64,000 nucleotides of DNA, from the IMG/VR virus record IMGVR_UViG_3300037418_002332; one strand, given 5' to 3'. Below the pieces are notes generated by a model. That model worked only from the letters and a program-made list of their open reading frames with translations, was not told the origin of the DNA and made no database searches. The DNA is from a virus (taxonomy: Duplodnaviria; Caudoviricetes). The translations under genes were made by a program, and so were the position numbers. The number at the start of each line of letters is the position of its first letter. Position 1 is the first letter of the stretch. Shown here one piece after another: positions 15,363 to 63,008 of the stretch.

Positions 15363-15536
15363 TCCGACAAATTTGTCGAAACCTCGTTGGATACCAATTA
15401 CCGAATTGAACTTTTACGAACACAAATTGTTCATGAAAGACGAGGTTTCCGGCAAAATGGGTGCTTGTAGACCAAAGGCTGACGGAAAATTTGAGTGGGA
15501 GCATAAGGTCAATCCCACTCACTACTGGAGTTTCTA

Positions 15537-33360: not shown

Positions 33361-34374
33361 ATGTTACTGTCGAGAGACGATTTTCGTGAGGGAGTATTCC
33401 GCCGCGACAGATATCGGTGCGTTGTTTGTGGCAACGCTGCTGTTGATGCTCATCATATTTTTGAGCGCAGGCTTTTTCCCGATGGTGGGTATTATCTTGA
33501 TAACGGTGCTTCTGTTTGTGAAGATCATCATCTTGCTTGCGAAAGGACTGATATTTCTGTTGAAGAAATTCGTACTTACGCAGGAATAACCAAACGCATA
33601 ATTCCGCCTCAATTGTATGATGACCAAGTTTATGACAAATGGGGCAATCCCATTTTGTTGAACGGAACACGATTAATCGGTGAACTTTTCTTCGATGAAT
33701 CCGTCCAGAAAATTCTTGCTGGTCATCTTCATGAATTCAGTCATTATGTAAAGTACCCAAGAACGTATCATCTACCTTGGAGCGAAGGCATTCATAATGA
33801 TGATCGAATTATCCCTTCCATGGAAGTTCTTGAGAAATCAGAAGTGGTTGTGACTAAAAAGATGGATGGTGAAAATACCACCATGTACAGTGATCATATC
33901 CACGCGCGAAGCCTTGATTCACTCCATCATCCATCAAGAAATTGGGTGAAGAATTTCCATAATCAGATTGGTTATCTCATACCTGAACACTGGCGTGTCT
34001 GCGTGGAAAATCTTTACGCCAAGCATTCAATAGGCTATGATGACCTTCCTTCATATGCCCTTGGGTTCTCAGTTTGGAATGAACGCAACGTTTGTTTGAA
34101 TTGGGATGAAACACTTGAGTGGTTTGAGCTTCTTGGCATCACTCCAGTTGAAACTCTTTATCGAGGTCCATTTGATGCTGAGAAAATCAAGGCTCTGTGG
34201 AAAGATATGAGTTGGGAAAAGGATGAAGGCTACATTGTCCGAACTGTTTCTGAGTTTCCATTCTCAGACTTTCGTAAAAATGTAGCGAAATTCGTTCGCA
34301 AAGGTCATGTTCAAACAATCAAACATTGGATGCATGGTCAAGCAGTAACTCCAAACAAGCTATTGGATGAATAA
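33361..34374 (+). CDS. HNH domain fused to ATP-dependent RNA ligase
   Basis: CVVC...DAHHI...C..HH; ligase motif I KMDGEN; EGYIVR, KFVR. Confidence 0.8.
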   Translation: MLLSRDDFREGVFRRDRYRCVVCGNAAVDAHHIFERRLFPDGGYYLDNGASVCEDHHLACERTDISVEEIRTYAGITKRIIPPQLYDDQVYDKWGNPILLNGTRLIGELFFDESVQKILAGHLHEFSHYVKYPRTYHLPWSEGIHNDDRIIPSMEVLEKSEVVVTKKMDGENTTMYSDHIHARSLDSLHHPSRNWVKNFHNQIGYLIPEHWRVCVENLYAKHSIGYDDLPSYALGFSVWNERNVCLNWDETLEWFELLGITPVETLYRGPFDAEKIKALWKDMSWEKDEGYIVRTVSEFPFSDFRKNVAKFVRKGHVQTIKHWMHGQAVTPNKLLDE

Positions 34375-36748: not shown

Positions 36749-37804
36749 ATGATGCGTAAAGCTTTTGAGCTGATGAAAATTATGAACGACGCAGGTCGCG
36801 AAACCCGAATTGCTGGTGGTGCGGTCCGTGATACGGTCATGAGACAAAATCCAAAAGACATCGATCTGGCAACTGTCGCCAAGCCCGAAGAGGTTCGGGA
36901 AATCTTCACTAAACTGGGTCACTCAGTTATTGATACTGGGCTGCAACATGGTACTGTTACCGTGGTGATTGATCACATTCCATATGAAGTGACAACTCTG
37001 CGGGTTGATTCAAACCAGGATGGCCGTCATGCTGATGTGACTTTCACTGATAGTTTTGAGGAAGATGCAAAGCGTCGTGACTTCACGATGAATGCTATGT
37101 ACATGGATTACAATGGAGATATCCATGACTTCCATGAAGGGAAGCGTCATATTAATCAACAGATGATTTATTTTGTTGGTGATCCTGAACAACGTATCAA
37201 GGAAGATTATCTGCGCATCCTGCGTTATTTCAGGTTCATGGCTCGATTTAGATTTGGTCATGACTATAATGCGATGTATGCAATGGGTGATTTGCGTATG
37301 GGTCTGCATAAAATCTCCCATGAACGTATCTACTCAGAAATCATGAAGACTGCGCAAGTTAATGACACGCAAGTGTTCTATCTGATGAATAATTCATGCA
37401 TCAGTGAAGTTGTCTTCAATAAGAATCTGAAAACGGAAGAAACAACCCATACGAAACCCGAAATCACTCTGTTCATGAAGGGTATCGGTTCTAATTGGTT
37501 CCGTGAATTCAAGGCTCCTGCTGATGTGATCAAAACGATTGAATGGCATGAAAAGTTTCAGCCTTCCAATTTCAATTTTGATCTGTTCAAAAACGGTGCA
37601 GAACGTATGCGTGAATGGTGTTTCATCAATAATGTTCCTTGGGGTTCCAAGTTTGCTGAGGCACCGAAGTTTCCGCTGACTGGTCACGATTTTCCTCACC
37701 TGAAAGGCAAGGCAATTGGTGACAAACTGAAAGAACTGCAAAAGGTATGGGCTGAAAATAACTTCGAGCCCACGAAACAAGAACTGCTGAAGGAGAATGG
37801 TTAA
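36749..37804 (+). CDS. cca: tRNA nucleotidyltransferase (CCA-adding / poly(A) polymerase family)
   Basis: GGAVRD...DIDLAT, EVTTLR, RRDFTMNAM, EDYLRILRYFRF. Confidence 0.9.
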   Translation: MMRKAFELMKIMNDAGRETRIAGGAVRDTVMRQNPKDIDLATVAKPEEVREIFTKLGHSVIDTGLQHGTVTVVIDHIPYEVTTLRVDSNQDGRHADVTFTDSFEEDAKRRDFTMNAMYMDYNGDIHDFHEGKRHINQQMIYFVGDPEQRIKEDYLRILRYFRFMARFRFGHDYNAMYAMGDLRMGLHKISHERIYSEIMKTAQVNDTQVFYLMNNSCISEVVFNKNLKTEETTHTKPEITLFMKGIGSNWFREFKAPADVIKTIEWHEKFQPSNFNFDLFKNGAERMREWCFINNVPWGSKFAEAPKFPLTGHDFPHLKGKAIGDKLKELQKVWAENNFEPTKQELLKENG

Positions 37805-40069: not shown

Positions 40070-41407
40070 TTGGTAAAGCAAATATTCCTCAAAGGTAAAA
40101 AAGCAAATGAGGGATTTCTAGGAACTTTTCTTGATAATGATGCGTATGATGTTTTGCTGACCGAAGACGCTGATGTTTACAAGACAGATGCGTTTGGCGA
40201 AGATACCAGCGATAACAATGTTCTACTGAAATTTCGCAAGGGAGTTTTCTCAAAGGAACTCCGAGACGCAGCGTATAAAGGGTTGAAGGATGGCGCAACC
40301 ACATCACATAATCGTGGTATTGCTACTGGTCCAATTGAAGGCGATATTCAACGTCAATCCCCTGATTCAAAAAATGGTCGTGAATGGGTAACTGATTTTC
40401 AGTTTGAAATTTTGAATTTTTTCATTCAACCATCAGTTCTTTCATTGATGGGTGAAGATGAAAAATTGACCCTTGAAAAACTCATTGAAAAATTCAAGGG
40501 CAAGGAAAAAGAAGTTACATCTTTGCGTGGTCACGTATGGTTGACTGAAAAGATCGAACGCAATGAATTCAACTTCATGAACTGGGCACACGAAACTGCA
40601 AAGTTGCCTAAGACTGATCAAATGGAAGAAGCAAGAATTGTGTCTGAGGAATATATTTCTTCAACCAATTATGCAAATCCAGTTTTCAGTGGTGTAGGAG
40701 GTTTTTATGACAGATACCCAAGAATTCCTTATTGTAGAGCAACTGCCTACACAGCAAACAACAAAGAAAAATTTGAAATGTCTGTTCCATTCATTGAAGA
40801 TATTTCAGGATGGTTCCAAAAGTTGTTACCAACCAGATGGGCAGCTCAGAAAAAAGAAATCGTAAAGATTGATCCTGAGTACCATATTGGCAAATCAGTT
40901 TACACGACAATCACAATTAACAAAAATTTCCGTACTGCTTGTCACCGTGATGCTGGCGATTTGGAAGCTGGTTTCGGAAATCTGACGGCATTGTCTGACG
41001 ATCGTGAGTGGTCAGGTGGTTATCTTTGCTTCCCTGAATATCGTGTTGCAGTTGACATTCGACCTGGTGACGTTTTGTTGATGGACGTTCATGAAATTCA
41101 CGGCAACACCCCAATCTCAAAATTGAATGGTGATGCGCCTGAACGAATTTCAATCGTTTGTTATTTTCGTGAAAAAATGAATGGTTGCTCAGCAAAGTCC
41201 TATGAAGATTATCGTGAGAAGTTTGTCATGTGGAATAAGACTGACAAAAATTGCCCAAGCTGGAGAGAAAACTTCAATGGTGTCTATCCAGACATGTGGA
41301 AAAGCGAACGTTGGTACGATTACCTCAGAGCCAATCTTGGTGAGGACTCATTGAAACAATATCACCCTGAGGCATTCACTTCTGATTTGGCCGATTTCTT
41401 TAATTAG
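40070..41407 (+). CDS. TET/JBP-family 2OG-Fe(II) dioxygenase
   Basis: TACHRDAGD (HxD), HEIHGNTP (distal H), ERISIVCYFRE (2OG-binding R). Confidence 0.85.
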   Translation: MVKQIFLKGKKANEGFLGTFLDNDAYDVLLTEDADVYKTDAFGEDTSDNNVLLKFRKGVFSKELRDAAYKGLKDGATTSHNRGIATGPIEGDIQRQSPDSKNGREWVTDFQFEILNFFIQPSVLSLMGEDEKLTLEKLIEKFKGKEKEVTSLRGHVWLTEKIERNEFNFMNWAHETAKLPKTDQMEEARIVSEEYISSTNYANPVFSGVGGFYDRYPRIPYCRATAYTANNKEKFEMSVPFIEDISGWFQKLLPTRWAAQKKEIVKIDPEYHIGKSVYTTITINKNFRTACHRDAGDLEAGFGNLTALSDDREWSGGYLCFPEYRVAVDIRPGDVLLMDVHEIHGNTPISKLNGDAPERISIVCYFREKMNGCSAKSYEDYREKFVMWNKTDKNCPSWRENFNGVYPDMWKSERWYDYLRANLGEDSLKQYHPEAFTSDLADFFN

Positions 41408-41655
41408 AGTATATGCGAAAATGACGAAATTAATTGTTGTGTTAGTGATGGCTTTTTGTAATGCTGGTGGTGGATATCGGTGTGAATATAAAATCACACC
41501 GGTTGAAACTTGGGACCAGTGCATTCAAGCAAGTCAAAATGCTAGAATAACTTTTGGTGCAAAGGATGCATCTATGGCAATTTATTGTTCCTATATGAAC
41601 CCAAACGATCTCTAAAAATCTTTCAAATAATTCTTCTGCCAAAGGAAGAATTCGC

Positions 41656-41684
41656 TTTACTCCATCCAGTCAATAAGCTATAAT
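41656..41684 (+). promoter_or_regulatory. early promoter
   Basis: TTTACT-17-TATAAT. Confidence 0.75.
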
Positions 41685-42421
41685 GTTTATAGTGATTGGA
41701 TGGAGACTTCCGTGAGAAAGAGAACTCTTAAGACCTACAACGTTCGCTTCTTCCTCCAGTATCAGGGCGGAGGCAAGTCAGGTTCGGAATTCTTCGAAGT
41801 TGTAGCCTTCACTGCTGGTGAAGCAATCAACAAAGTTAAGAAGCAGGCTCGTGACGAAGTCTGGTATGACCGTCACGATGGTTCGGCTCAGTTTTCGGCT
41901 GTGAGGCTCTGATGGTCGTTGGAATGGATCATGAAAAGAAAATCGGTGACAAGTATTGGCATCCGACATTACATTGGGGTGAAGTGACCAACGTGGTCTA
42001 TTATCCTGATGGTGATTTCCACTTCTATGTTGTGAAGTTTGATGAAAACTTCGTTGAATGCATGGAAGAGGATATGGAAGAAGACGCTGAGGCAAAACGG
42101 AGAATGCGCTGATGTCTCTTGAAGCACAAACCAGAGCATACAATGAATATTCTCGTTTGATGGATGCTTCCAAGAAGGCATATGATGTTGGGAATATGCG
42201 CAAATATTACAAGCTTATTGATGAAGCTGAAGATGCCTTTGATTATTATCAGGATATTCAGCGCCCTTGGGAGGACTGAATGAACGACAAAGCATTTATT
42301 TTGCTCTATGTGATAGGCGTTTTGATTTTCGTCATTGGTATCACTCTGGAGTTGACCGCATGGTACCATTGCGGTTTCAGCGGTTGGATTTACGGGCGAA
42401 ACATTTTCTGGGCCTATTGGC

Positions 42422-42985
42422 TTGGTTATTGCGGAGGGTGATATGGAAGAGATCGATATTGAGGACATTGCCACCCATCAAAAGTCCATTTATGCTCGAC
42501 GTCCTGCTCGTATGTCCAAACGGACCGAAAATCTTCTAGCCATTGTCACTGGCTCTCTGTTGGCCGAAAAGTCTGAATATGGTGACAAGGATGGTCTTCT
42601 TGACGCAGCTGCAAAGTTTGTCAAGAATATTGAAATCGAAGCACGTTTTTATCGTGCTATTGCTCGGCTCATTGAGCTTGAAACAAAGCTCAATTTGAAG
42701 CGCGCACCAACTCACTTTTTCCGTACAACCAAGAAAGGTGATGTTCTTTTTGTTCACGACGGCACTGAATTCAAAATTGGCAATCCTGATATTGAAGTTC
42801 TCGACAATATGATTCAGCGTTATGAAGAAGACCTTGCTGATCAAGAAGCTGAAGAAGCTTTGTTGGGTTCAATTCGCAAGAAGCTTTCGCTCGACGAAAT
42901 TCGTATTCTTCGTGGTGAACGTGAACCAATTCTTGAAAAATTGAACCACGAAGAAAAAGATTATATTTCAAGAAATTGGGGTTGA
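42422..42985 (+). CDS. hypothetical protein
   Basis: ORF track. Confidence 0.65.
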   Translation: MVIAEGDMEEIDIEDIATHQKSIYARRPARMSKRTENLLAIVTGSLLAEKSEYGDKDGLLDAAAKFVKNIEIEARFYRAIARLIELETKLNLKRAPTHFFRTTKKGDVLFVHDGTEFKIGNPDIEVLDNMIQRYEEDLADQEAEEALLGSIRKKLSLDEIRILRGEREPILEKLNHEEKDYISRNWG

Positions 42986-43053
42986 TTGGGCTTTACTCGG
43001 CTATCTTCTTCATATATGTATGAGTTGTTAACTTAAGATATAAAGAGGATAGA

Positions 43054-43560
43054 ATGATTGTAGAAAGACCAAGACTGTTTTTGGATTCAGACGGTGTGTT
43101 GCTGGATTTTGATGCCAAATTTATGGAATTGTCCGGTGGGTTGTCTTCATCTGAGTATGAAGATACATATGGCGCAAAGCAGTTTTGGAAGTTGATTCGT
43201 GAGCACGATGACTTTTTCTACAATTTACCCTTCATGAAGGGTGGTTGGGAACTGTGGTCTCATTGTCAGCAGTATGACCCAACCATTCTGACCGGTGCTC
43301 CATTTGGAAACTGGGCCGCACCACAAAAAATCCGAGCGGCAAAGGATCGTTTCAATACAGACAAAATCATCGTTTGCTTGTCACGTAACAAGCGTGATCA
43401 TGCTAACCCTGGTGATGTTCTGGTTGATGATCTACTGAAATATAAGCATCTGTGGGAAGAAATGGGCGGTGTCTTCGTTCACCACACTTCATTTGATACA
43501 ACCGTCGCTGCATTGAAGGAAATTTATCATGGCAAAGATTACTCATCAACAAATGTATGA
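43054..43560 (+). CDS. HAD-family 5'(3')-deoxyribonucleotidase-like protein
   Basis: LFLDSDGVLLDF, ILTG, VLVDD. Confidence 0.8.
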   Translation: MIVERPRLFLDSDGVLLDFDAKFMELSGGLSSSEYEDTYGAKQFWKLIREHDDFFYNLPFMKGGWELWSHCQQYDPTILTGAPFGNWAAPQKIRAAKDRFNTDKIIVCLSRNKRDHANPGDVLVDDLLKYKHLWEEMGGVFVHHTSFDTTVAALKEIYHGKDYSSTNV

Positions 43561-43981
43561 AAATCGATTGAAGGCTGTTGAATATTTGGAACAGCCTCAA
43601 CTTCGCAAGGCTCGTGAACAACTTCGCGATAATAAGGGTGGCCGTTGTTGTCTTGGGCATATGTGCGATGCTTTTCCTGAAGCAATTTCTACGGAAAAAA
43701 ACGGTGGCCAATGGCTTTATGGCAAAGATAAAGAACCCGCTCGTGCTCCAAAAGAACTTGTAGATTTGCTTGGAATGTACACCAGTATTGGTGGCACCAA
43801 AGATTTCAATATGTTTATGAACGATAAAGGTGAATATCCATTTGGCAACACTCCTAGTCTTGCAGAAGTGAACGATCAAATGCGTGTTTCACCTCAGGCT
43901 ATAGGAAAATATTTGCGTTCGGTTATTCTCGGTGGACCAAACACTCCTTGGAAGAAAATCAAGGTGGCAAAGGCTGCTTGA
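43529..43981 (+). CDS. hypothetical protein (CCLG motif)
   Basis: ORF track. Confidence 0.65.
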   Translation: MAKITHQQMYENRLKAVEYLEQPQLRKAREQLRDNKGGRCCLGHMCDAFPEAISTEKNGGQWLYGKDKEPARAPKELVDLLGMYTSIGGTKDFNMFMNDKGEYPFGNTPSLAEVNDQMRVSPQAIGKYLRSVILGGPNTPWKKIKVAKAA

Positions 43982-44520
43982 ACAAAGTCTTCCCTAAATA
44001 GCATTGGAGATTGAAATGAATTTGATCAGTTTTCTTTTCATTGCGATTACAGTTTTAGTTGCGTGGGGACTCGGTTGGGGTGGAGCAACTCTTCATACAA
44101 AATACGAAGAATGGAGACTTAGAAGAAAGTATGGAGAATAGACAGCTAGAATTAGATTTGGGTGATAAGCTTCAAAAATGGGAGTTAATTGCCCGGAAGA
44201 TGTTGGCTACTGTCAAACACAGTAACAACACATCAGTTAGAATTTTTAAGGGTCGTAGACCCGAAGATTGGATACTTGGCACTCGAACTTTTATCTATGA
44301 TACGGATTACACATATGATCATGTTATAGATTGGGAAACTGCCAAATATCTTTATGAAAAAGTTGGAGTTTGGGACTTTTTAGATTCAGTCAAAGGCAAA
44401 CTTGACGAAGAAAAGAAGATGCGACTTCTTGATCAAGTTGTCATATGTAAAAAGTGTGGATGTGAAAAGACGATTGCTGAAATGCAATCACAGGATCATA
44501 AAGCATGTTTTGAGGGATAA

Positions 44521-45432
44521 ATGTATTCAATCGCAATGCGGACATATGGACGTTCTAAAACGTTTTCCGAACGCACCTACAAGTTTTTGAAGGCTCAGAC
44601 AGGTCTCGACTTGGCTGAGCAACTTTACATTTTTGTTGCAAACAAAGAGGAAAAGGCTCTCTACGAGGAAGCCTTGAAGGATCAACCATATAAACAAATT
44701 GTTGTTGGTGTCTTGGGTATCAAGGAAGTTACTGACTTCATGTTTCATTTCTTTGGAAATGGCAAGGAAGTCTTTTTCTTTGATGACGATCTTTTTGATT
44801 TCTTTGAATTTCCTGGTCATCCATTGACAATAAAAATCCAAAAAGAATCAACAAATTTGCACAATTATTTACTCGATGGGTTTAAAACCATTCATGAAGA
44901 AGGCATATCAACTTTCGCCTTCCGGTCCATGACCAATCCACTTTTCATCAGTGGAAAAGCTTTCAAGGAAATTCGTCCACACTATTTGGTTGGTTCAGCA
45001 TGGGGTGCTGTGACTAATTTTGAACTCCATACAACCATGTTTGGGCACAATGAAGATATGGAACGTTCAGCCAAAGTTATTGAAGAAGATGGTGGTTCAT
45101 TGGTTTACAATTGGGCTGGTATGATCAGTCATATCAACAATGTTGGCCAAGGTCTCAATGAAGGTGGAATGCAATCATCAGGTGATCGCGGTGATTTTGA
45201 TGATCCTGAATCCAGATATAATCATACAAAGGCTATTGTTGATACTTTGGCGAACAAATCATTGATGCCAAAATATTTCAATGGTCCATTCTACGATGAA
45301 ACTTTGAAAGCTTGGGATTGGAAAATCAAACCATTGAACAGTTTGAGAAAATATCCAATTCGTGAAAAACGTTGGGATGAATATTTCGATTCAGTTTCCC
45401 ATGAAATTGTAACAAATAAATTGCCAATTTAG
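44521..45432 (+). CDS. GT-A fold glycosyltransferase (TET-associated type)
   Basis: YSIAMRTYGRS, FFFDDD, EDMERS. Confidence 0.7.
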   Translation: MYSIAMRTYGRSKTFSERTYKFLKAQTGLDLAEQLYIFVANKEEKALYEEALKDQPYKQIVVGVLGIKEVTDFMFHFFGNGKEVFFFDDDLFDFFEFPGHPLTIKIQKESTNLHNYLLDGFKTIHEEGISTFAFRSMTNPLFISGKAFKEIRPHYLVGSAWGAVTNFELHTTMFGHNEDMERSAKVIEEDGGSLVYNWAGMISHINNVGQGLNEGGMQSSGDRGDFDDPESRYNHTKAIVDTLANKSLMPKYFNGPFYDETLKAWDWKIKPLNSLRKYPIREKRWDEYFDSVSHEIVTNKLPI

Positions 45433-45441
45433 GAGAAATAA

Positions 45442-46125
45442 ATGTGTGGAGTTCTTGGTTACAAGACCATCAATCCTTGCGCAACCGATCTTGAACTCAT
45501 TCGCAATTTGTTTTTGGAAGCTGGTATTCGCGGGCAACATGCAACGGGCATTTCATGGTTAGAAGGCAAAAAAATCAACACCGTTAAACTGCCTGTGGGT
45601 TCTGAAGAGTTTGTTAAACAATTCAATTTCAACAACCTTTTGAATTTAGATGGATCAATCACAATGATTGGTCACATTCGATACTCAACTAGTGACGTTC
45701 GGTTCAATCAACCTTTTTCCAATGATAAATACGCCATCGTTCATAATGGTGTAATCAGTCAAGAATCACCTGAAAATTGGCCTATCAAATGCGAAACACG
45801 CAATGATAGCGAAATGGTGCTACACGCTTTGTCTGATTTTAAAAACTACAAACATCCTCTCGAAGAATTTCCAGATAGCAGTCAAGCTGTTGTTTTTCTC
45901 CAAAATTCATCAAATGTACTTGGTGGTTGGAGAAATGGTTTAAGACCTTTGTGGTATTCATGGGATGCCCATGAGCGATTGATTCTCGCTTCTACTGAAA
46001 ATATCTTGAAACGTGCTGGCATTAAAAATGCAATCAAAGCACCAATGAATGTTGAATTATTCATGGAAGGCGATGAATTATATCAAAATCCATATCATCC
46101 AACAAATAAGAAAGATTTACAGTAA
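45442..46125 (+). CDS. class II glutamine amidotransferase
   Basis: N-terminal MCGVLG, GHIRYST, HNGVI, NDSE. Confidence 0.88.
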   Translation: MCGVLGYKTINPCATDLELIRNLFLEAGIRGQHATGISWLEGKKINTVKLPVGSEEFVKQFNFNNLLNLDGSITMIGHIRYSTSDVRFNQPFSNDKYAIVHNGVISQESPENWPIKCETRNDSEMVLHALSDFKNYKHPLEEFPDSSQAVVFLQNSSNVLGGWRNGLRPLWYSWDAHERLILASTENILKRAGIKNAIKAPMNVELFMEGDELYQNPYHPTNKKDLQ

Positions 46126-47037
46126 ATGGGAAAATACGAACCAAGCAATTGGTCATATGGAAGTGAACTTGAATTAGGTGATGTGAAATTTGGGCAAGAA
46201 CTTCCTGAAGGAAATAGTTGGAATACCAAAGATAATACAGTTATGAATTCCAATGGTGTGGCTAATGATCCAAAGGGTGAAATTTGGCCATGGGGTGGTG
46301 AAATTAATTGTAAACCAACTTCAACCACCATTGATCAAACACGCAATTTCACTTATGTATTGAGTGAATTGTCAAAAGAAGCAAAGCCGGTTGTGAATTT
46401 CAGATCAAATCTCCATATTCACGTGCGAGTTCCAGGATTAAAAGATGACCTTGAAGCGGTTAAGAAATTGCAAAGATACATTGATTCCTATGGGCAGGAA
46501 GCATTCGACATCGTTGAGCGTATCCCGAAGCCTGATCCTAGCCAAATGTCCAAAGAAGCTTATGAAGGTGCGTACAAAAGATTCAAGCGTCGTAAAGTGA
46601 GTCATCAATACATGCTTCCAAAAAATCGTTTGGATGAAATGTATGCTGCAACTACTGTCAAGGAATTTTGGGAAGCACATGCACCAATTGGTAAAGATGG
46701 TGCTCGTATGTGGTATTTTAGTCCACGACCAGGCATCAATCTGAGACAGCTTTGGGAAGAAACGGACACGGTTGAATTCAGACATTATCCTGGAACAATT
46801 GATCCATGGGAATTTGATTCATGCGTTCGTTGGTCTAAAGAGTTTCTTTATCATGCACTTTCTGATGAACAAAAAAGACCTCTTGACTTTTACACACCAG
46901 AGGATTATAAGTTTCCAAAGTTCGGTGAATATGATTATGAGTTGGACAAAATCTTTAAGATGACCAACTTTGCTGATAATAATCGTGCAACGGTTAAGGC
47001 AAACATCGAAAAACTTCAAGCGGAAGGCAAAATATGA
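46126..47037 (+). CDS. putative amidoligase (COOH-NH2 ligase-type)
   Basis: YGSELELGD, GGEINCKP, NLHIHVR, TVEFRH. Confidence 0.7.
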   Translation: MGKYEPSNWSYGSELELGDVKFGQELPEGNSWNTKDNTVMNSNGVANDPKGEIWPWGGEINCKPTSTTIDQTRNFTYVLSELSKEAKPVVNFRSNLHIHVRVPGLKDDLEAVKKLQRYIDSYGQEAFDIVERIPKPDPSQMSKEAYEGAYKRFKRRKVSHQYMLPKNRLDEMYAATTVKEFWEAHAPIGKDGARMWYFSPRPGINLRQLWEETDTVEFRHYPGTIDPWEFDSCVRWSKEFLYHALSDEQKRPLDFYTPEDYKFPKFGEYDYELDKIFKMTNFADNNRATVKANIEKLQAEGKI

Positions 47038-47603
47038 GTTTAGCTGAATTCATAGAAGAACGCGATAAACATTATTCAAATTTTGACCATTTGAAGAAAA
47101 TTCCAATCGGTGGAAAGATTCTTTTCATTTGTGTTGGAAATATCAATAGAAGTCCAGCAGCAGAGTTGATGATGAGGGATCAACTAGTCGCTCACTCCAA
47201 ACTGAACTGGATTGTATTGTCGGCAGGAATATCAGATAAAAATAAAGGCAAGTTGACTGCCAAAAAAATGCGTGATATTCTTTTGGACATGGGTTATGAA
47301 AACAATTCAGTTCGTTCACAACCTGTTACGCAGGAACTTGTTGATCAGGCTGATGTCATTTTCGTCATGGACGGCGCAAATGAACGCAAGCTAGTGGAGA
47401 AATTTGGTGAGCAAATACTATCTAAAATTCAGTACATCGGAGATTGGAACACAACTTCTTCAAGAACAATACCTGATCCCCATTTTCATAGTGGGAGTGA
47501 GATGCATCGAAAAGTTGCTTATCTTCTTGAGGGCTCTATCCACAATTTAATTGGTTATCACGAAGCCATTTATAATTTCGAAGAGCCATTGAAGGGAAAT
47601 TGA
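47034..47603 (+). CDS. low-molecular-weight phosphatase (LMW-PTP/ArsC fold)
   Basis: CVGNINRS (Cx5R), IPDP. Confidence 0.85.
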   Translation: MSLAEFIEERDKHYSNFDHLKKIPIGGKILFICVGNINRSPAAELMMRDQLVAHSKLNWIVLSAGISDKNKGKLTAKKMRDILLDMGYENNSVRSQPVTQELVDQADVIFVMDGANERKLVEKFGEQILSKIQYIGDWNTTSSRTIPDPHFHSGSEMHRKVAYLLEGSIHNLIGYHEAIYNFEEPLKGN

Positions 47604-47604
47604 T

Positions 47605-48393
47605 TTGAAAATTTTCATTCCAACATATAAGCGTGAAGGCAAACAATTTACGTTGGCCGGCATCCCTAAAGGCTGGTTGAATAAGACATATCTTGTCTGC
47701 CCAAAGGAGGAAGTTCATGATCACCCTCTTCGTGTCGATGTGCCTGTTGAGTTCATTGGTTCCATTGCGAAAACACGACAATTCATCATTGATCAAAGTG
47801 ACGATCCTCAAATAGCAATGCTGGACGATGATCTCACGTTCTACAAACGTGATGAAATTGTCAAAACTCAACGTTCTACAAGTTCTGCCATAGTTAATGA
47901 TCTATTTCATTTGATGAACGACTGGTTAGATCAAGGTGATGTATTTTGCGGAACTTCGAATTCATTTATGTCACATGAGAAACCAACTGAATATTACTAT
48001 GGAAAACCATCCCACTGTTGTTTTCTAAATCGTGATTATTTGAAGCAACATAACATCCGTTACGATGCGGTGACATATTTTGAAGATTTCCATGTTCCAA
48101 TTTCCGTAATTGAATCTGGAAAACGTTTGCGTTACAGCGGCGAATATATCTCTATTGAAAAGAAGGCAAACGCTGAAGGTGGTTGCTCAGTCAATCGTAC
48201 CAAGGAAAACAACCGTGAAGCCATGATTGAGCTTCAAAAACTTCATCCAAATTACATCACCTTAAAAGAAGACGAAAAGGCTGAAAATCAAAATCTTCAG
48301 GTTGGATTGAAGATGAGAATTGAGTTCAAAAAATTGTACGATGAATTTGTATTGGGTAAGAAAGCCAAAATTGAATATGGGAGTCTGTTTTGA
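47605..48393 (+). CDS. GT-A fold glycosyltransferase (TET-associated type)
   Basis: MKIFIPTYKR, AMLDDD, FEDFH, GGCS. Confidence 0.78.
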   Translation: MKIFIPTYKREGKQFTLAGIPKGWLNKTYLVCPKEEVHDHPLRVDVPVEFIGSIAKTRQFIIDQSDDPQIAMLDDDLTFYKRDEIVKTQRSTSSAIVNDLFHLMNDWLDQGDVFCGTSNSFMSHEKPTEYYYGKPSHCCFLNRDYLKQHNIRYDAVTYFEDFHVPISVIESGKRLRYSGEYISIEKKANAEGGCSVNRTKENNREAMIELQKLHPNYITLKEDEKAENQNLQVGLKMRIEFKKLYDEFVLGKKAKIEYGSLF

Positions 48394-48492
48394 TCAATAG
48401 ATATATTGAAATTTTCATAGATGATATCATTCCTTTCATCGTTGGTGTCATTATTCCGTTTTCAATCTTTGGATACATAATGGTGACACATC

Positions 48493-49476
48493 TTGGATAG
48501 ACTCGACACTTTCATTGATTGGTTTGGGACCTCAGTTCGTATCAACGACTGTGATCCGGCTCTATTCATGACCACTTATTTTTTCGATCGATTTGAATTT
48601 AATCTTGAGCAAAAATATTGGTTGTGCTGGATATATGGAACAACCTATCATTGGCCAACCGCATATATCATCTGGAATGAATTTCCGGACTTTGCGTTGG
48701 TTGGTTATGATAAACTCAATGAATGGAATACTGAAAATTTCAAACGTCTGAGATATCAAACGGATACTAAATGGAACAAAGGTCATTTGGCCGAAATGTT
48801 CAAATCATACCGTGATCGATTGAAAGGATATGAGAGTCAAGAAGCTTATTTTAACAAATTGTGCGACAAGCCTCATGATCCATATTCTAATTTTTTGAAC
48901 TGTTATAATGCAATCATCCGTGATTTTCATAAATTTGGCAGATATTCAACTTGGTTCTATTTGCAGATTTTAAAACAATGTGTTGGTCTGAATATCGAAC
49001 CTGAGACATTACTGTTATCTGATCCTGGTTCTGAATCCCATCGTAATGGATTTCTATATGCTATGGGCCGTGAAGATTTGATTGATCAACCGATCACCAA
49101 AGAACAATATCAAGAATTTGAAGAAATTGCTGCAACTGTTTTGAACGAAACCCGAAGACGTTTTCCAGACGTTGCACATAGAATCGACTACTTCGCTATG
49201 GAAACTTGTTTGTGTAGTTTCAAGAAACTATTCAGAACACGTGACGGCAGATATCTTGGTTATTATCTGGATAGACAAGCTGAAGAAATTCAAAAGGTTG
49301 AAAAGGATGGTTGGATCGGCATTAACTGGAAACCTCTTTGGCAATGCCGTGAAGAAATAGTGGATAAAAAATGGTTGACTAATGCTATTGATCCAGCTAA
49401 AATGCATCTATTCCTAAAAACTGGTGATATTCATGCGGAGCTTGAAAAATCCGCATTGGAAGATTTTTTCAATTGA
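48493..49476 (+). CDS. amino-acid:DNA transferase / aGPT-pyrophosphorylase-like protein
   Basis: FGRYSTWFYLQ, METCLCSFKK, GRYLGYYLDR resemble the HhH-fold aGPT-PPlase family. Confidence 0.65.
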   Translation: MDRLDTFIDWFGTSVRINDCDPALFMTTYFFDRFEFNLEQKYWLCWIYGTTYHWPTAYIIWNEFPDFALVGYDKLNEWNTENFKRLRYQTDTKWNKGHLAEMFKSYRDRLKGYESQEAYFNKLCDKPHDPYSNFLNCYNAIIRDFHKFGRYSTWFYLQILKQCVGLNIEPETLLLSDPGSESHRNGFLYAMGREDLIDQPITKEQYQEFEEIAATVLNETRRRFPDVAHRIDYFAMETCLCSFKKLFRTRDGRYLGYYLDRQAEEIQKVEKDGWIGINWKPLWQCREEIVDKKWLTNAIDPAKMHLFLKTGDIHAELEKSALEDFFN

Positions 49477-49488
49477 GGAGAATATAAA

Positions 49489-49752
49489 ATGTCAATTTTC
49501 AAAAACATTACTGAGAAACTGAAGGAAATTAAAGACGTCGCAATCGAAAAGGCTGGCGACGTAGCTGAGCTTGTTGAAGACAAGTACGATGATGCAAAGG
49601 AACTTACTTCCATTGCTATCAACAAGGCTGGCACTGCATATGAAGGTGCTCGTGATTACGCAGCAGAAAAATACGAAGATGCTAAGGAAGTGGCTGGTGA
49701 GGTTAAGACCAAAGCAAAGAAAGTTGCTGACGTAATTCGCGAAAAAGAATAA
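49489..49752 (+). CDS. small helical repeat protein
   Basis: GAGGAG RBS; repeated EKYDDAKE-like units. Confidence 0.6.
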   Translation: MSIFKNITEKLKEIKDVAIEKAGDVAELVEDKYDDAKELTSIAINKAGTAYEGARDYAAEKYEDAKEVAGEVKTKAKKVADVIREKE

Positions 49753-49986
49753 TGCGTTTTCATTGCGTAAATATTTTTGATTGGCTATCTGATCGTAGAT
49801 ATGCCAGTTATATTAAGAAAACACATTGGCATAAAAAGTTCACTTGGTTTCCAACCAGAATGACAGATGGCGATGGAGAATGCGTTTGGTTTGAAACAAT
49901 CTGGCGCAAAGGCGAATGTGACAGTTACAATGGAACTTGGTATTGGTCATATGTGACACCAGAATTTTATAATTACAATAGGTACA

Positions 49987-50328
49987 ATGATGTCTGAACA
50001 ATATTACGAATTATCGATAACTGCTGATACCAATGATGCTGATTATGTGACTGCAACTCATAAAGTTACAATGGAAAAAATCCAGGCTTTGTTGCCTATC
50101 ATTGAAGTGATCAACAAGAAGACACTAGAACTTAAAAACCAACGTGGTTATGGTCATAATTTTCCAAATGGTGAAATTGGCGATCCACGTGAAGTGTATT
50201 CTGAGGAAGAGCTTACTGACGAACAAATTGATTTAATCAGCGATTATTTACCATATGGCGAATATGGTATTCACACAATTACTGACATCGAATATTATCC
50301 ATACCCAGAAAAGGTTAGACTTCTATAA
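49987..50328 (+). CDS. hypothetical protein
   Basis: ORF track. Confidence 0.65.
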   Translation: MMSEQYYELSITADTNDADYVTATHKVTMEKIQALLPIIEVINKKTLELKNQRGYGHNFPNGEIGDPREVYSEEELTDEQIDLISDYLPYGEYGIHTITDIEYYPYPEKVRLL

Positions 50329-50732
50329 TGGGATTTGCATACGATTTGAAAAAGAAAACCGCTGAAGCTCAGGCGGATTTGAAAAATAAAGAAGCTCAAG
50401 AACATCGGGAAGCAGTAAGAATTCAAAAGCTTCTGGAAGCTGAACGATCCAAAAAATTCAAACATTCCGTCAAGGAATCAACCAAAAAAATTCTTGAACA
50501 AATGGAAATTGCTGCCGCAGCTGGCAGGCATTCCTTGGAATTTGAACCAAGGACATATTTCAATTATGCTGAAAATTTTCCATTGGCTGATATCGTTCAA
50601 GAATTAAAACGTCACATTGGTGATCCTGAATTCATTTACAAAACACGATCCGAAACTGTGGACGGCGAATGGGTAGACGTCGGCGACTACAGAGAAGGAT
50701 ACACAACTCGCTGGATAGAAATTTCATGGTAA
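50328..50732 (+). CDS. hypothetical protein
   Basis: ORF track. Confidence 0.65.
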   Translation: MGFAYDLKKKTAEAQADLKNKEAQEHREAVRIQKLLEAERSKKFKHSVKESTKKILEQMEIAAAAGRHSLEFEPRTYFNYAENFPLADIVQELKRHIGDPEFIYKTRSETVDGEWVDVGDYREGYTTRWIEISW

Positions 50733-51316
50733 AAAGATGCGTTGCAATTGGTGGTGTTCCTGGAACTGGGAAAACCACCTTAATGTTAAAATTCATGGGT
50801 GATTTGACACCAATCACCAAACTTCGAAACTTGGTTAATGGCCATGTTTATAAGGATCGCGTGGTCCTTGGAGATTACACCAAGGATGGGTCATTCAAAG
50901 GCACTGATACATTCTCAATGGCTGTCCAACCTGAAGCTGAGGAATTCTTCAAAGAAAACAAGTTTCATGTGGTGTTTGAAGGTGATCGAATTTTCAATTC
51001 AAAAATGCTCAACTTCATCCAAGACAATGGATATGAGCTTTTGACTATCATTATTGAAGCTCCTGAGAAAATGTTGAAGGAACGTTATGCTGAACGTGGT
51101 TCAGATCAATCCGAAAAGTTTTTGTCTGGACGTAAAACGAAATATGAAAACATTAAAAACGATGCCAGTTTAAAGGTTTACACGGCTGTTCATGAAGAAC
51201 CACTCGATACTGTGAAAATCGCAGTTGCGATGTTAAAATTCATTAATGATGGCATCATCGATGATGGTACATTGAAAGAAGTCAAGCACGATTCACTGGA
51301 CGACTTTTTCTCATAA
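50726..51316 (+). CDS. P-loop nucleotide kinase (base-modification-associated type)
   Basis: IGGVPGTGKTT, VFEGDR, LKERYAERGSDQSEKF. Confidence 0.78.
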   Translation: MVKRCVAIGGVPGTGKTTLMLKFMGDLTPITKLRNLVNGHVYKDRVVLGDYTKDGSFKGTDTFSMAVQPEAEEFFKENKFHVVFEGDRIFNSKMLNFIQDNGYELLTIIIEAPEKMLKERYAERGSDQSEKFLSGRKTKYENIKNDASLKVYTAVHEEPLDTVKIAVAMLKFINDGIIDDGTLKEVKHDSLDDFFS

Positions 51317-51322
51317 CCTAAA

Positions 51323-51364
51323 TTCTCCTTGGGTATAAATAACTGAAACTTATTCCAAGGAGAA
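51323..51364 (+). promoter_or_regulatory. late promoter in RBS-sequestering hairpin
   Basis: TTCTCCTTGG/CCAAGGAGAA; TATAAATA at 51334-51341. Confidence 0.78.
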
Positions 51365-51372
51365 GAAGCACT

Positions 51373-51951
51373 ATGCCATTATGGTCAAAATCAGGTCAAA
51401 GACCTAAGTATCTTGCTGCGGCAGATCGTAGAAATATCATCGCTACACCAGAAGGCTGGGTGAGACGTATTCAATACACCGGCACTGGTGGTATTGTTCG
51501 TAAAAAAGACGAAATCCTTGTTCATATTACCAACCTTTCTGGATTGGTTTCAATGGGCAATCCAGATATCGTTGAATTGTATGTTGCAAACTCAAGCGGT
51601 GGCACCACTATCAAGAGAAACCTTGTCAATAAGGTTAATGTGGTCTATAGTGAACCAATCTCAATTGCCACTTCTCCATCCATTCTCAATATGAACGTTG
51701 CAAACGTTGCTGGTGGTTCAGCAAAGGTGGCTGTCTCAGATACCAACAAAGCTAACATCGTTAACGCAAACAATACGCTTGTTTTCAGTTTCACTCCAAC
51801 CGTCGCTGGCACTTATAAAATCCAAGCGCAAACGCTCACTTCCAATGCCGCACACAAGGTTTACGGCATCTATGGTGGTGCGTCAGAAACCGCAAACACC
51901 GTTATCAGCGCCTCAGTTTCCAACACCCTATCAACTTTCGTGGTTGGCTAA
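51373..51951 (+). CDS. putative virion structural protein
   Basis: late promoter; MPLW..ATPEGWV N-terminus, beta-rich C-terminus. Confidence 0.65.
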   Translation: MPLWSKSGQRPKYLAAADRRNIIATPEGWVRRIQYTGTGGIVRKKDEILVHITNLSGLVSMGNPDIVELYVANSSGGTTIKRNLVNKVNVVYSEPISIATSPSILNMNVANVAGGSAKVAVSDTNKANIVNANNTLVFSFTPTVAGTYKIQAQTLTSNAAHKVYGIYGGASETANTVISASVSNTLSTFVVG

Positions 51952-52088
51952 CACGTTGATTTCATTAGGTTTCTAAAAAATCTTAAGAAATCTTCTTTTT
52001 TCTTCGGAACTGACACCTATATTCCGCGTTATCGCCTTACCGTGATGACGCGGTTTTGTTATGTAACTAGTGAAAAGGAGTCAATGCC

Positions 52089-54752: not shown

Positions 54753-55685
54753 ATGAAACTCGCTCGAATTGGAATGTTCGCCGCAATTGCTTTTGCAGCT
54801 TTTGCGTCATTCACTTCTGTGGCTTCGGCCAATCCAACCATGACCATCTGTGGTGGTAAGCCTGGCGGCAATTATGATTATGTGGCTCATCAGGTTGCTG
54901 ATCAGCTGCGCGGTCAGATTGACGTTGCCGTTCTCAACACTGCTGGTTCTGGTGAAAATCTGGACAAGATCAAGTCTGGTGAATGCGATGTCGCAATCAC
55001 TCAATCCGATGCGCTGTATGTTTACGGCAAGGAAAAGGGTCAACTCGATTATTACAATATCACCAACGATGGTATGTACACCGAGTATTCAACCCTGATT
55101 TGCAATCGTTCGTCAAACGTTAAGTCCTGGGGTGATCTTTCAGTGAAAGGTTCCAAAATTTACGCTGGTGAAAAAGGTTCTGGCGCCGAAATTACCGCAC
55201 GTGGTTTGAAGGCAGCTGACGCTGAAGAAGGCGGCGATGCATATAAGGATCTCGCAATCCTGAATTCACCTGCTGACGCATCGCTTGTCAAAGTCAAGTC
55301 ACGTTCCGCTGATTGTCTGTTCTATGTCGGTTCCAAGGGCAACGAATTTGTCGGAGTCAAGGCTGAAAAGCTTGCAGCTGATTTGGTTGTTGTTCCGGTC
55401 GAAGACAAGGACTTCAATGACGTTGTCATGAAGGACGCAAACGGCAACGAAATCTCCGTTTGGACCCCAGTCGATATGCCAAGCGATACCTATGGCAAAA
55501 TCATGCCTTCTGGTACTCTTTGGGGTAACAAGTCTGTTCCAACCATCGGTGTCAATTCTTTGATGATCGCAAGTCAGTCATGGGCCGATGCCAATGAGCC
55601 AGCTTTCACTGCTCTTGGATTGACCATCGGTGACGTTGTCAATGCTGTCCGTGCTGACAAAAAGGTTGAGCTTGTTGTAAAGTAA
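54753..55685 (+). CDS. TAXI-family periplasmic solute-binding-like protein
   Basis: signal peptide; GGNY, TAGSGENL, AITQSDA, GEKGSG. Confidence 0.75.
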   Translation: MKLARIGMFAAIAFAAFASFTSVASANPTMTICGGKPGGNYDYVAHQVADQLRGQIDVAVLNTAGSGENLDKIKSGECDVAITQSDALYVYGKEKGQLDYYNITNDGMYTEYSTLICNRSSNVKSWGDLSVKGSKIYAGEKGSGAEITARGLKAADAEEGGDAYKDLAILNSPADASLVKVKSRSADCLFYVGSKGNEFVGVKAEKLAADLVVVPVEDKDFNDVVMKDANGNEISVWTPVDMPSDTYGKIMPSGTLWGNKSVPTIGVNSLMIASQSWADANEPAFTALGLTIGDVVNAVRADKKVELVVK

Positions 55686-61590: not shown

Positions 61591-61863
61591 ATGTTCTTTT
61601 GTTATAGTGACAGTGCTGAACCGTTCACCGGATCGATCACAAAACTTGATCCGAATAAATGTTTTATGAAGCATTATGGAAATTCATTGTATTTGAATTT
61701 CATCTTCAACTCTTCAACGGATGGTGTTGAAAGGCGACAAGCTAACAAAGAAATCCAAATGGCTGATAAAAAGATGGCCTACTGGAGAAAGCATCCAGAT
61801 TTTAGTCTGGCTATCGTCGAACCGAAAATGAAAGCTGAAAAAGCAAAATGGCGCACGACCTAA
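61591..61863 (+). CDS. hypothetical protein
   Basis: GGAGG RBS. Confidence 0.6.
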   Translation: MFFCYSDSAEPFTGSITKLDPNKCFMKHYGNSLYLNFIFNSSTDGVERRQANKEIQMADKKMAYWRKHPDFSLAIVEPKMKAEKAKWRTT

Positions 61864-63008
61864 AACTCTTCAATTCATTGACTGGGTCTAAAGATGTGTT
61901 CGTTCCTATGGACGATCAAAGTGTTAAGATGTATGTCTGTGGACCAACTTTATATGCACCATTGCATGTTGGCAATCTCCGACCAATGATCGTTTTTGAT
62001 CTGTTATATCGCATTTTGCGTGAATTGTATGGTATAGATCAAGTCATCTATGCACGCAATATCACAGATTATGATCAAAAGGTCATGACTGCGGTGAACA
62101 ACAGTTCCCTTGATTTCTCGACATTCATGTCAAGTCAAATTCAAGAATTCAATGCCTATGAAACTTTGTTAGGATTGATACCACCTGATTTTGAGCCGCG
62201 TGTAACAAAATATGTCACAAGCATTCGTACATATATCAACAAGTTGACTGAAAAAGGCAAAACATACGAAATTGATGGTATCATCTATTTGAGAAATCGT
62301 GCATTCAATGTTGGAATGCTTTCACGCAAACCTTATGTTGATTTAACACATAACAGAATTGAACCTGATCCAAACAAGGAAGACCCAAGGGATTTCATTC
62401 TTTGGAAACCAATTCCAAACGATTACGAATTTGGATTTGAATATCCTGAATCATCACCATTGCATTCAACGGAAGCCAAAGGCCAACCTGGATGGCACAT
62501 TGAATGTTCAGCAATGGCTGAAGAAGTTCTTGGATCAAAGATTGATATTCATGGTGGTGGTGAAGACTTGATGTTTCCTCATCATGAGAACGAAATTTCA
62601 CAATGCTATGCTCGTCATGGTCATTTTATGTCCAAGTTTTGGCTCCACAATGGATTTGTTACCAATTCTAAAGGTCAAAAATTTGGCAAAAGTCTGGACA
62701 ATGCAATTACAGTCAATGAAGCATTGAACAAATTTGGCGGTGAAGTGATTCGCTTTTATATGTTGATGACTCATTACCGCAGTCCAAAAACTTGGTCCCT
62801 TGAAGGATTGGTAGAAGCTCAAACTATTTTTATGAAATTCCAAAATTTGACTCATGGTGTTTTCCATCCGTACAACAAACCACCAACCGAGTTTTGGGAT
62901 GCCTTGATGAATGATATGAATACGCCATTGGCAATTGCGAAGATGCATGAGTATGCGAAGAAGGACATTTTCAGTTTAGATATCTGCATGCGTTGGCTTG
63001 GATTTTAG
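61848..63008 (+). CDS. cysS: cysteinyl-tRNA synthetase catalytic core, C-terminally truncated
   Basis: YVCGPT..LHVGN, PGWHIECSAM, DIHGGGEDLMFPHHENE, HNGFV, KFGKS; ends after DMNTPLA. Confidence 0.88.
   Translation: MAHDLKLFNSLTGSKDVFVPMDDQSVKMYVCGPTLYAPLHVGNLRPMIVFDLLYRILRELYGIDQVIYARNITDYDQKVMTAVNNSSLDFSTFMSSQIQEFNAYETLLGLIPPDFEPRVTKYVTSIRTYINKLTEKGKTYEIDGIIYLRNRAFNVGMLSRKPYVDLTHNRIEPDPNKEDPRDFILWKPIPNDYEFGFEYPESSPLHSTEAKGQPGWHIECSAMAEEVLGSKIDIHGGGEDLMFPHHENEISQCYARHGHFMSKFWLHNGFVTNSKGQKFGKSLDNAITVNEALNKFGGEVIRFYMLMTHYRSPKTWSLEGLVEAQTIFMKFQNLTHGVFHPYNKPPTEFWDALMNDMNTPLAIAKMHEYAKKDIFSLDICMRWLGF

Follow-up and report, generated by a model that had tools for sequence, protein, structure and literature searches.

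The 64,000-nucleotide stretch of DNA analyzed here, hereafter the window, is part of the IMG/VR virus record IMGVR_UViG_3300037418_002332, which is 247,119 bp long and 97% complete. Its source is an uncultured soil T4-like jumbo phage that encodes a gp45-type sliding clamp, the gp44 and gp62 clamp-loader subunits, UvsW, gp55 and a family-B DNA polymerase. Between positions 40,070 and 51,316 lies a gene cluster coding for a TET/JBP dioxygenase, two glycosyltransferases (GT1 and GT2), a glutamine amidotransferase (GATase), an amidoligase, a low-molecular-weight (LMW) phosphatase, an amino-acid:DNA transferase (AADT, also ADDT) and a P-loop kinase (Table 1). We consider it probable that this cluster serves the post-replicative hypermodification of thymine in a T4-like jumbo phage, with the DNA-acting enzymes recruited by the sliding clamp. 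Families were assigned with Pfam at its curated cut-offs, PHROGs and NCBIfam, the last of which contributed little. Except for a HAD nucleotidase, all of the enzymes named in an initial annotation of this DNA are encoded on the + strand where that annotation had placed them, and the matches to the Tet_JBP, TAGT (for GT2), ADDT and kinase profiles are above the cut-offs.

Table 1. Genes of the cluster, and the C-terminal peptides shared by three of their products; positions are those of the window.
Feature	Position	Strand	Basis
Long-form TET/JBP (5mYOX) dioxygenase, 445 amino acids, TTG start	40070-41407	+	Pfam Tet_JBP
TET tail SDLADFFN, putative sliding-clamp-binding peptide	41381-41404	+	
HAD/NT5C-like small protein, possible deoxyribonucleotidase	43054-43560	+	DSDGV at residue 11
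Conserved protein, no Pfam match	43529-43981	+	53% identical homologue at same place in L018
Conserved small protein, no family match; stop abuts GT1 start	44131-44520	+	L017, L019 homologues 46-51% identical
GT1, divergent TAGT-type GT-A glycosyltransferase, DDD motif	44521-45432	+	Pfam TAGT (weak); hhalign; Atlas
Stand-alone class II (Ntn) glutamine amidotransferase, predicted ammonia donor	45442-46125	+	GATase_6
Amidoligase_2, glutamine-synthetase-like ATP-dependent carboxylate-amine ligase	46126-47037	+	Homologues, Atlas
LMW phosphatase LMWPc	47034-47603	+	Pfam, motifs
GT2, TAGT-family GT-A glycosyltransferase, DDD motif	47605-48393	+	Pfam TAGT, PHROGs
Amino-acid:DNA transferase ADDT/AADT (formerly aGPT-Pplase2)	48493-49476	+	Pfam ADDT
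AADT tail SALEDFFN	49450-49473	+	
P-loop 5-hmdU-DNA-kinase-like protein (Ploopntkinase3)	50726-51316	+	Pfam, Walker A
Kinase tail DSLDDFFS	51290-51313	+	

The TET/JBP dioxygenase matches the Pfam profile Tet_JBP with an E-value of 4.9e-23 (81.6 bits, cut-off 34.9), and is the only copy of that family in the genome. The best match of its AlphaFold2 model (pLDDT 88.9) among PDB structures, as identified by Foldseek, is human TET2, with an E-value of 4.6e-11 and an alignment that covers the full length; NgTET1 is matched with an E-value of 1.7e-9. The iron triad, His292-x-Asp294...His344, and the 2-oxoglutarate residue Arg359 are invariant among 60 homologues. In view of a weak BRCT_2 match, we asked whether the first 214 residues could be a ParB or BRCT domain fused to the enzyme; this candidate was rejected because the whole protein is modeled as one TET2-like catalytic domain. 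Judging from this model, the additional 200 residues at the N-terminus belong to the catalytic domain and not to a fused regulator.

The initial annotation had found no C5-cytosine methyltransferase in the window and had left the substrate of the dioxygenase undecided between 5-methylcytosine (5mC) and thymine. Our search for this family (PF00145) confirms the absence and extends it to the whole 97%-complete genome. The ThyA family (PF00303) is also absent from the genome, which therefore encodes no hydroxymethylase for either dCMP or dUMP, and ThyX is encoded by one copy. Thus, with no hydroxymethylase, one ThyX and one TET, thymine would enter the DNA normally, and 5-hydroxymethyluracil (5hmU) would be formed only through the dioxygenase. 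From this gene content, the substrate of the enzyme is most likely thymine in DNA, and the question seems largely settled. Phage TETs that have no adjoining C5-methyltransferase are indeed predicted to be T-dioxygenases, and tested representatives were shown to be so (PMC13229309). ParB_N (PF02195) has no match at an E-value of 1 or below in the whole genome, and none in the open reading frames (ORFs) upstream of the dioxygenase; therefore, the enzyme is not of the ParB-dependent subclass of T-dioxygenases.

The enzymes that could act on 5hmU lie in the downstream part of the cluster. The transferase matches the ADDT profile with an E-value of 2.2e-19 (70.5 bits, cut-off 26.2). The essential Glu and Cys known from the ViI-type enzyme (PMC8989533) have their counterparts in Glu237 and Cys241 when the two sequences are aligned (M-E-T-C-L-C in the window, F-E-T-S-G-A-C in the ViI-type enzyme). 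The kinase, encoded 1.25 kb downstream of the transferase, carries the Walker A motif GVPGTGKT and is marginally above the cut-off of the Ploopntkinase3 profile (E-value 5.3e-7; 29.8 bits against 27). The start proposed for it at 50,726 stands, in that its homologues start there as well.

Upstream of the transferase is the run from 44,521 to 48,393 that the initial annotation described as tightly coupled. The junctions agree with that description: the small ORF at 44131-44520 abuts GT1, 9 nucleotides (nt) separate GT1 from the GATase, the GATase abuts the amidoligase, the stop of the amidoligase overlaps the start of the phosphatase (ATGA), and 1 nt separates the phosphatase from GT2. GT2 is a clear TAGT protein (E-value 1.3e-9, 38.7 bits, cut-off 27.5; phrog_842, E-value 1.8e-30). 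GT1 is only a remote relative of GT2; a disaccharide, which the initial annotation suggested as a possible product, would be speculative. Its match to Pfam TAGT (E-value 0.009, 16.4 bits) is below the same cut-off, and it is the comparison of its family profile with the GT2/TAGT profile in hhalign that relates the two (93.7% probability, E-value 1.9e-7), with aligned blocks at PTYxR, DDD and GG(M/C)S. In the Atlas, GT1 has a TM score of 0.81 to TAGT-bearing clusters, and it also matches the glycosyltransferase part of 698-residue Tet_JBP proteins.

The GATase matches GATase_6 with an E-value of 4.6e-9 (36.8 bits, cut-off 27), as well as the N-terminal domains of purF and asnB; it begins with Met-Cys-Gly, so that a cysteine follows the initiator methionine. 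The amidoligase scores 16 bits with the Amidoligase_2 profile, below the cut-off of 22. However, PF12224 is present in most of the listed homologues, which are 45-74% identical to it, and in the Atlas the protein has a feature score of 0.97 and a structural TM score of 0.75. The phosphatase matches LMWPc with an E-value of 1.9e-24 (87 bits, cut-off 23.2), and possesses both the CX5RS loop (C-V-G-N-I-N-R-S) and the DP motif (I-P-D-P).

Three of these proteins, namely the dioxygenase, the transferase and the kinase, end in the same type of peptide, SLxDFF, as the phage's own DNA polymerase. Among the approximately 400 ORFs of the genome, only four real ones end in L[AED]DFF[NS], and these are the family-B polymerase and the three enzymes; the number of such endings expected by chance is about 1e-4. 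In work on T4 and RB69, the C-terminal tail of the polymerase gp43 has been found to bind the sliding clamp gp45. T4 gp43 ends in ASLDFLFG (NC_000866). GT2 of the window ends in EYGSLF, and its homologues in three related loci end in GLEDFFN (L018), GLESFFG (L019) and ILDDFM (L027). (L-numbers, from L002 to L027, denote the loci compared with that of the window; L014 is Caulobacter phage Cr30 and L022 is Salmonella phage Marshall.) No such tail was found in GT1, the GATase, the amidoligase, the phosphatase or the NT5C-like protein, with L018 and L019 compared.

When counted across families with one loose pattern (LxxFF-type or LDI-type), tails are present in 119 of 120 homologues of the long-form dioxygenase and in at least 65 of 120 ADDT homologues. 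By comparison, no more than 5 of 120 homologues of the amidoligase have one, and the 402 ORFs of the genome include 9. In other phages the sequence of the tail changes together with that of the polymerase. In Stenotrophomonas phage DLP6, the polymerase ends in TLDSFFA, the TET in TLGDFFV and the TAGT in DLSSFFN; in Cr30, the polymerase ends in DLSSLFD and the GT1-like protein, which is 40% identical to the tailless GT1 of the window, in DLSKLF; and in the ViI-like Marshall, the polymerase ends in NLLSMMGKKG, the transferase in NLMSLLKR and the HMUD2 kinase in SLLGLMRKA. Because the tail thus co-varies with that of the polymerase across phage lineages, comparison of these sequences suggests that the tailed enzymes are tethered to the sliding clamp through putative clamp-binding peptides. 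A complex prediction for the trimer of the gp45 homologue with residues 401-445 of the dioxygenase scored 0.29, relative to a mark of 0.34, and gave no verdict. Our literature search returned no paper linking a TET, kinase or AADT to a clamp.

Other tailed proteins were also observed. In Marshall (L022:1-5020), the polymerase, the HMUD2 5-hydroxymethyldeoxyuridine (5-hmdU) DNA kinase and the ViI gp247-type transferase have similar tails of the type NL(L/M)S(M/L)(M/L), and a gene for a 'deoxyribonucleotidase' is located among theirs. GT-B enzymes and a GNAT-like protein with tails also exist. Two loci (L019:2271-4999 and L017:9982-12737) have two long-form TETs in tandem, about 41-44% identical to each other and both with a clamp-type tail.

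The gene set recurs in other uncultured T4-like phages. L018 and L019, with dioxygenases 77% and 84% identical to that of the window, retain the order GT1-GATase-amidoligase-LMWPc-TAGT-ADDT-kinase. More distant is L027, a T4-like contig of 110 kb whose dioxygenase is 45% identical to that of the window; here, TET-GATase-TAGT-amidoligase-LMWPc-ADDT-kinase form a contiguous seven-gene operon, with products 38-60% identical to those of the window. The core set consists of the dioxygenase, GATase, TAGT, amidoligase, LMW phosphatase, AADT and kinase, the phosphatase being kept in all three loci. GT1, which L027 does not have, and the NT5C-like gene are additions of the window's own clade. As this recurrence shows, the genes are not side by side by chance. 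The initial proposal of a DNA-base hypermodification locus that joins a TET/glycosyltransferase branch and a kinase/AADT branch with a GATase-amidoligase pair is supported. A nucleotide search against cultured phages gave no match to the locus, and a search for related loci with GT2 as the query found none.

Other loci contain part of the set. L002 and L003 have TET-GATase-GNAT-like-ADDT-kinase, and L011 has TET-GATase-amidoligase-GNAT-ADDT-kinase, in each case with no glycosyltransferase or phosphatase. Several of the components are also found fused: the amidoligase with LMWPc in four clusters (P0184, P0193, P0206 and P0213), the amidoligase with a PF18748 kinase in P0228, and ADDT with Ploopntkinase3 in 20 of the 120 best ADDT homologues. 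One of the amidoligase-LMWPc fusions is encoded between ADDT and a kinase in a phage with a family-A polymerase and no TET shown; thus, the amidoligase and phosphatase belong to the kinase/transferase branch. In a further group of relatives (L017:9982-20023, L021:8955-17249 and Cr30, L014:9001-17894), the tailoring genes differ: TET, ADDT and kinase are accompanied, instead of by the GATase, amidoligase and phosphatase, by a myo-inositol-1-phosphate synthase plus a GT-B enzyme (L021, probably L017) or a GT1-like TAGT-type protein (Cr30, L017). This hints that these relatives make a different adduct, possibly one that contains inositol. A literature search on DNA modification in Cr30 returned no paper.

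Taken together, these data lead us to propose the following pathway. The TET/JBP dioxygenase would hydroxylate thymine in DNA to 5hmU, the P-loop kinase would phosphorylate the hydroxymethyl group to give 5-phosphomethyl-uracil, and the AADT would exchange this phosphate for an amino acid or an amine. These three steps follow from the characterized activities of the respective families (PMC8989533; PMC13229309), while the later ones are our inference; the chemistry of the kinase and AADT has been established for phages ViI, M6 and PaMx11 (PMC8989533). In a fourth step, the amidoligase, with ammonia from the class II GATase, would amidate the carboxylate that is still free on the attached amino acid. 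An analogy is provided by asparagine synthetase B and by MurT/GatD, in which an ATP-dependent ligase amidates a carboxylate with ammonia from a glutaminase; it is only an analogy, however, as the ligase of the window has the Amidoligase_2 fold and would act on an amino acid that DNA already carries. The amide would mask a negative charge. Other phages eliminate this charge by decarboxylation; in the characterized pathways the carboxylate of the amino acid is lost either through a pyridoxal phosphate (PLP) decarboxylase or through cleavage that depends on flavin adenine dinucleotide (FAD). The cluster yielded no PLP, radical S-adenosylmethionine (SAM) or FAD enzyme, and has an ATP-dependent ligase and a glutaminase instead; carboxylate amidation is therefore the simplest reading. 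The TAGT enzymes would glycosylate either unsubstituted 5hmU or a hydroxyl group of the adduct. The LMW phosphatase, which would work beside the amidoligase, may return unreacted phosphorylated 5hmU to 5hmU, and thereby to glycosylation, or, alternatively, may strip off a phosphate with which the nucleophile arrived. The dioxygenase, kinase and transferase, as well as GT2 in the relatives, are the tailed enzymes and the ones that would need contact with DNA; they would probably be recruited by the gp45-type clamp left on the newly made DNA. Our best guess for the product is an amino-acid adduct of thymine with an amidated carboxylate, plus glycosylation. That all of this results in one composite base, with an amino acid on the C5-methyl group, an amide at its carboxylate and a sugar in addition, not yet seen in any DNA and built on newly replicated DNA by a line of clamp-docked enzymes, with such docking being general across unrelated DNA-modifying families, is a much bolder proposition, which we hold to be doubtful.

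Whether the two branches converge on one base is indeed debatable. The cluster could instead make two separate modifications, glycosylated 5hmU as in base J at some thymines, through TET and TAGT, and amidated amino-acid adducts at others, through the kinase, AADT, amidoligase and GATase, with the phosphatase setting the split between them by dephosphorylating 5-phosphomethyl-uracil. TAGT enzymes are tied to TET products, the phosphatase gene immediately precedes that of TAGT in the window as well as in L018 and L019, and some relatives have only part of the set: DLP6, L004 and L006 have TET and a TAGT or other glycosyltransferase, with no AADT found nearby, and the TET-GATase-AADT-kinase loci L002 and L003 have no glycosyltransferase. 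In L027, however, TAGT is embedded between the GATase and amidoligase in one operon, and the amidoligase-LMWPc fusions bind the phosphatase to the amide branch. We therefore see two modifications as a real possibility, though a somewhat improbable one. A far more remote prospect is that the dioxygenase acts on 5mC and that the cluster is one for cytosine hypermodification. According to the literature, 5mC is indeed oxidized by clade A and clade B phage TETs, and in vitro by some phage T-dioxygenases too. Against this, the 97%-complete genome lacks a C5-methyltransferase, which co-occurs with only 6% of the mined TET pathways (PMC13229309), and it is on 5hmU that enzymes of the kinase and AADT families were characterized.

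The assignment of the remaining enzymes to DNA, and of the tail to the clamp, must likewise be weighed. GT1, the GATase, the amidoligase and the phosphatase might have small molecules, proteins or the cell surface as their targets, or might only build the donor of the transferase. None of the four has a polymerase-like tail in the window, L018, L019 or L027 (the last having no GT1), the tail is rare among amidoligase homologues in general, GATase-amidoligase pairs exist in phages without this pathway, and LMWPc resembles protein phosphatases of the Wzb type. Yet the four genes are interleaved with DNA-acting genes in conserved operons, the amidoligase is found fused to a DNA kinase family and, next to ADDT, to LMWPc, a few amidoligase homologues are tailed (P0194, P0171), and the GT1 homologue of Cr30 bears the tail of its polymerase. 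A role away from DNA is, accordingly, unlikely in our judgment. It is about equally improbable that the shared tail is another common signal, with which the enzymes might, for instance, dock to a different replisome protein, bind one another or engage a protease or chaperone. Such a signal would be consistent with the degenerate GSLF ending of GT2 in the window, clamp binding being itself putative. Nevertheless, the motif is at the extreme C-terminus of a family-B polymerase, as in T4 gp43, in four lineages it changes in step with the tail of the polymerase, and the T4 alpha-glucosyltransferase binds the gp45 clamp (PMC13216743).

Several observations weigh against the thymine pathway with clamp recruitment as we propose it. 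About one fifth of the long-form TETs end in LDI while the polymerases on the same contigs end in LDSFF (L002-L005, L010), which would also suit a signal other than clamp docking. The TET-less contig with the amidoligase-LMWPc fusion shows no GATase, and therefore ammonia from glutamine is not obligatory. The GATase-amidoligase pair occurs in phages without TET or kinase (LUZ24-like) and need not act on DNA; both proteins, as well as GT1 and the phosphatase, are tailless. Lastly, 5mC made by the host may be a minor substrate of the dioxygenase.

The initial annotation put the pathway forward as a candidate new one, which is not supported as stated. Metavirome clusters that combine TET_JBP, 5-HMUDK, aGPT-Pplase/AADT, amidoligase and glutamine amidotransferase have been published, albeit uncharacterized (PMC8989533; PMC13229309). 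Those of Lee et al., NAR 2021 (PMC8989533), contain the same families, with TET in place of a dUMP hydroxymethylase as the source of 5hmU; the amidoligase and amidotransferase were noted there with their role unassigned. Their contigs are described without an LMW phosphatase, two TAGTs, an NT5C-like gene, a T4-like jumbo-phage setting or polymerase-like tails. In the literature that we searched, we met with no description of the fusions or the polymerase-like tails, nor of amidoligase and GATase being conserved together with an LMW phosphatase and TAGT, nor of such a set in jumbo phages, from which TET/JBP was absent in a 2021 survey. The ParB-dependent T-dioxygenases of clade C1 (O'Toole et al., PNAS 2026, PMC13229309) are similar in that TET is without an adjoining C5-methyltransferase and that GATases, P-loop kinases and AADTs are shared. 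They differ in that the genome of the window has no ParB_N, its dioxygenase bearing a clamp-type tail where that subclass would have ParB, and in that its dioxygenase is a 445-residue long form that aligns over its full length with TET2.

The likeness to ViI and M6/PaMx11 resides in the succession of a 5-hmdU DNA kinase and an AADT with a catalytic Cys and Glu, the transferase of the window being about 26-27% identical to the ViI-type enzyme. In those phages, however, 5hmU is made before replication and the pathway finishes with a PLP decarboxylase, radical SAM enzyme, FAD lyase or acetyltransferase, whereas in the window 5hmU would come from TET and these enzymes give way to the GATase, amidoligase, phosphatase and glycosyltransferases. 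Base J, made by JBP1/2 and JGT in kinetoplastids, offers a parallel for the other branch, in which a TET/JBP enzyme hydroxylates thymine in DNA and the resulting 5hmU is glycosylated; it is, however, eukaryotic, has no kinase/transferase branch and serves another biological role. A T4-type base-modifying enzyme on the clamp has a precedent in the T4 alpha-glucosyltransferase (Sommer et al. 2004; PMC13216743); in the window, a polymerase-like C-terminal peptide, putatively clamp-binding, is found across several unrelated enzyme families.

The three small ORFs of Table 1 lie between the dioxygenase and GT1. The HAD nucleotidase is the weak point of the initial annotation. Its best candidate, the protein encoded at 43054-43560, has the DSDGV motif, and its homologues in L018 and L017, at 53-55% identity, have weak or faint NT5C matches; on the other hand, Pfam HAD models match neither this protein nor any other in the genome. 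PDB sequence searches with this protein and with the amidoligase returned noise only. The ORF that precedes GT1 opens at 44,059, its likely start being the ATG at 44,131, as homologues align from residue 27 or later.

On the right, the cluster is followed by an ORF (51373-51951) whose product looks like an Ig-like beta-sandwich, and which adjoins the kinase in L017 and L019 as well. A T4-late-promoter-like sequence, TATAAATA, is found at 51334-51341, 32 nt 5' of this ORF, and a strong terminator-like hairpin (52024-52053) follows it. Together with the promoter-like sequence and the hairpin, this ORF probably forms a late unit of its own, at which the cluster would end on the right; given its apparent fold and the promoter-like sequence, we rejected it as a member of the pathway. 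Scans for sigma-70 promoters and terminators remained at background level. In L027, a gene for AmoC, subunit C of ammonia monooxygenase (L027:11019-11786), is directly 3' of the kinase. RNA-related genes flank the cluster, namely an RNA ligase (33361-34374), a CCA-adding/PolyA_pol protein (36749-37804) and the catalytic domain of a class I cysteinyl-tRNA synthetase (61848-63008). Further upstream, the region 14262-16334 encodes an AAA ATPase and an ATP-grasp protein of the R2K clade (15537-16334), and 23788-25935 a ClpB-like protein with two AAA domains. The product of 54753-55685 is a periplasmic solute-binding protein of the NMT1_3/phosphonate-binding type, unusual for a phage. The public runs that hold the locus are soil and rhizosphere metagenomes, with no RNA runs listed among them.

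Phage DNA hypermodifications overcome restriction and CRISPR systems and are a source of enzymes for DNA chemistry. What the amidoligase, GATase and phosphatase contribute when thymidine is hypermodified is a recognized gap (PMC8989533). A conserved seven-gene module emerges from this locus and its relatives, and the natural fusions show which of its parts cooperate. Cultured relatives exist in Caulobacter phage Cr30, with TET, ADDT, a GT1-like protein and a kinase, and in Stenotrophomonas phage DLP6, with TET and TAGT. The polymerase-like tails suggest that the phage clamp and its loader be added to heterologous assays; if the proposed docking is true, it would explain the inactivity of ParB-less phage TETs when expressed alone in E. 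coli. More broadly, the tails point to a general coupling of post-replicative base modification with the replisome.

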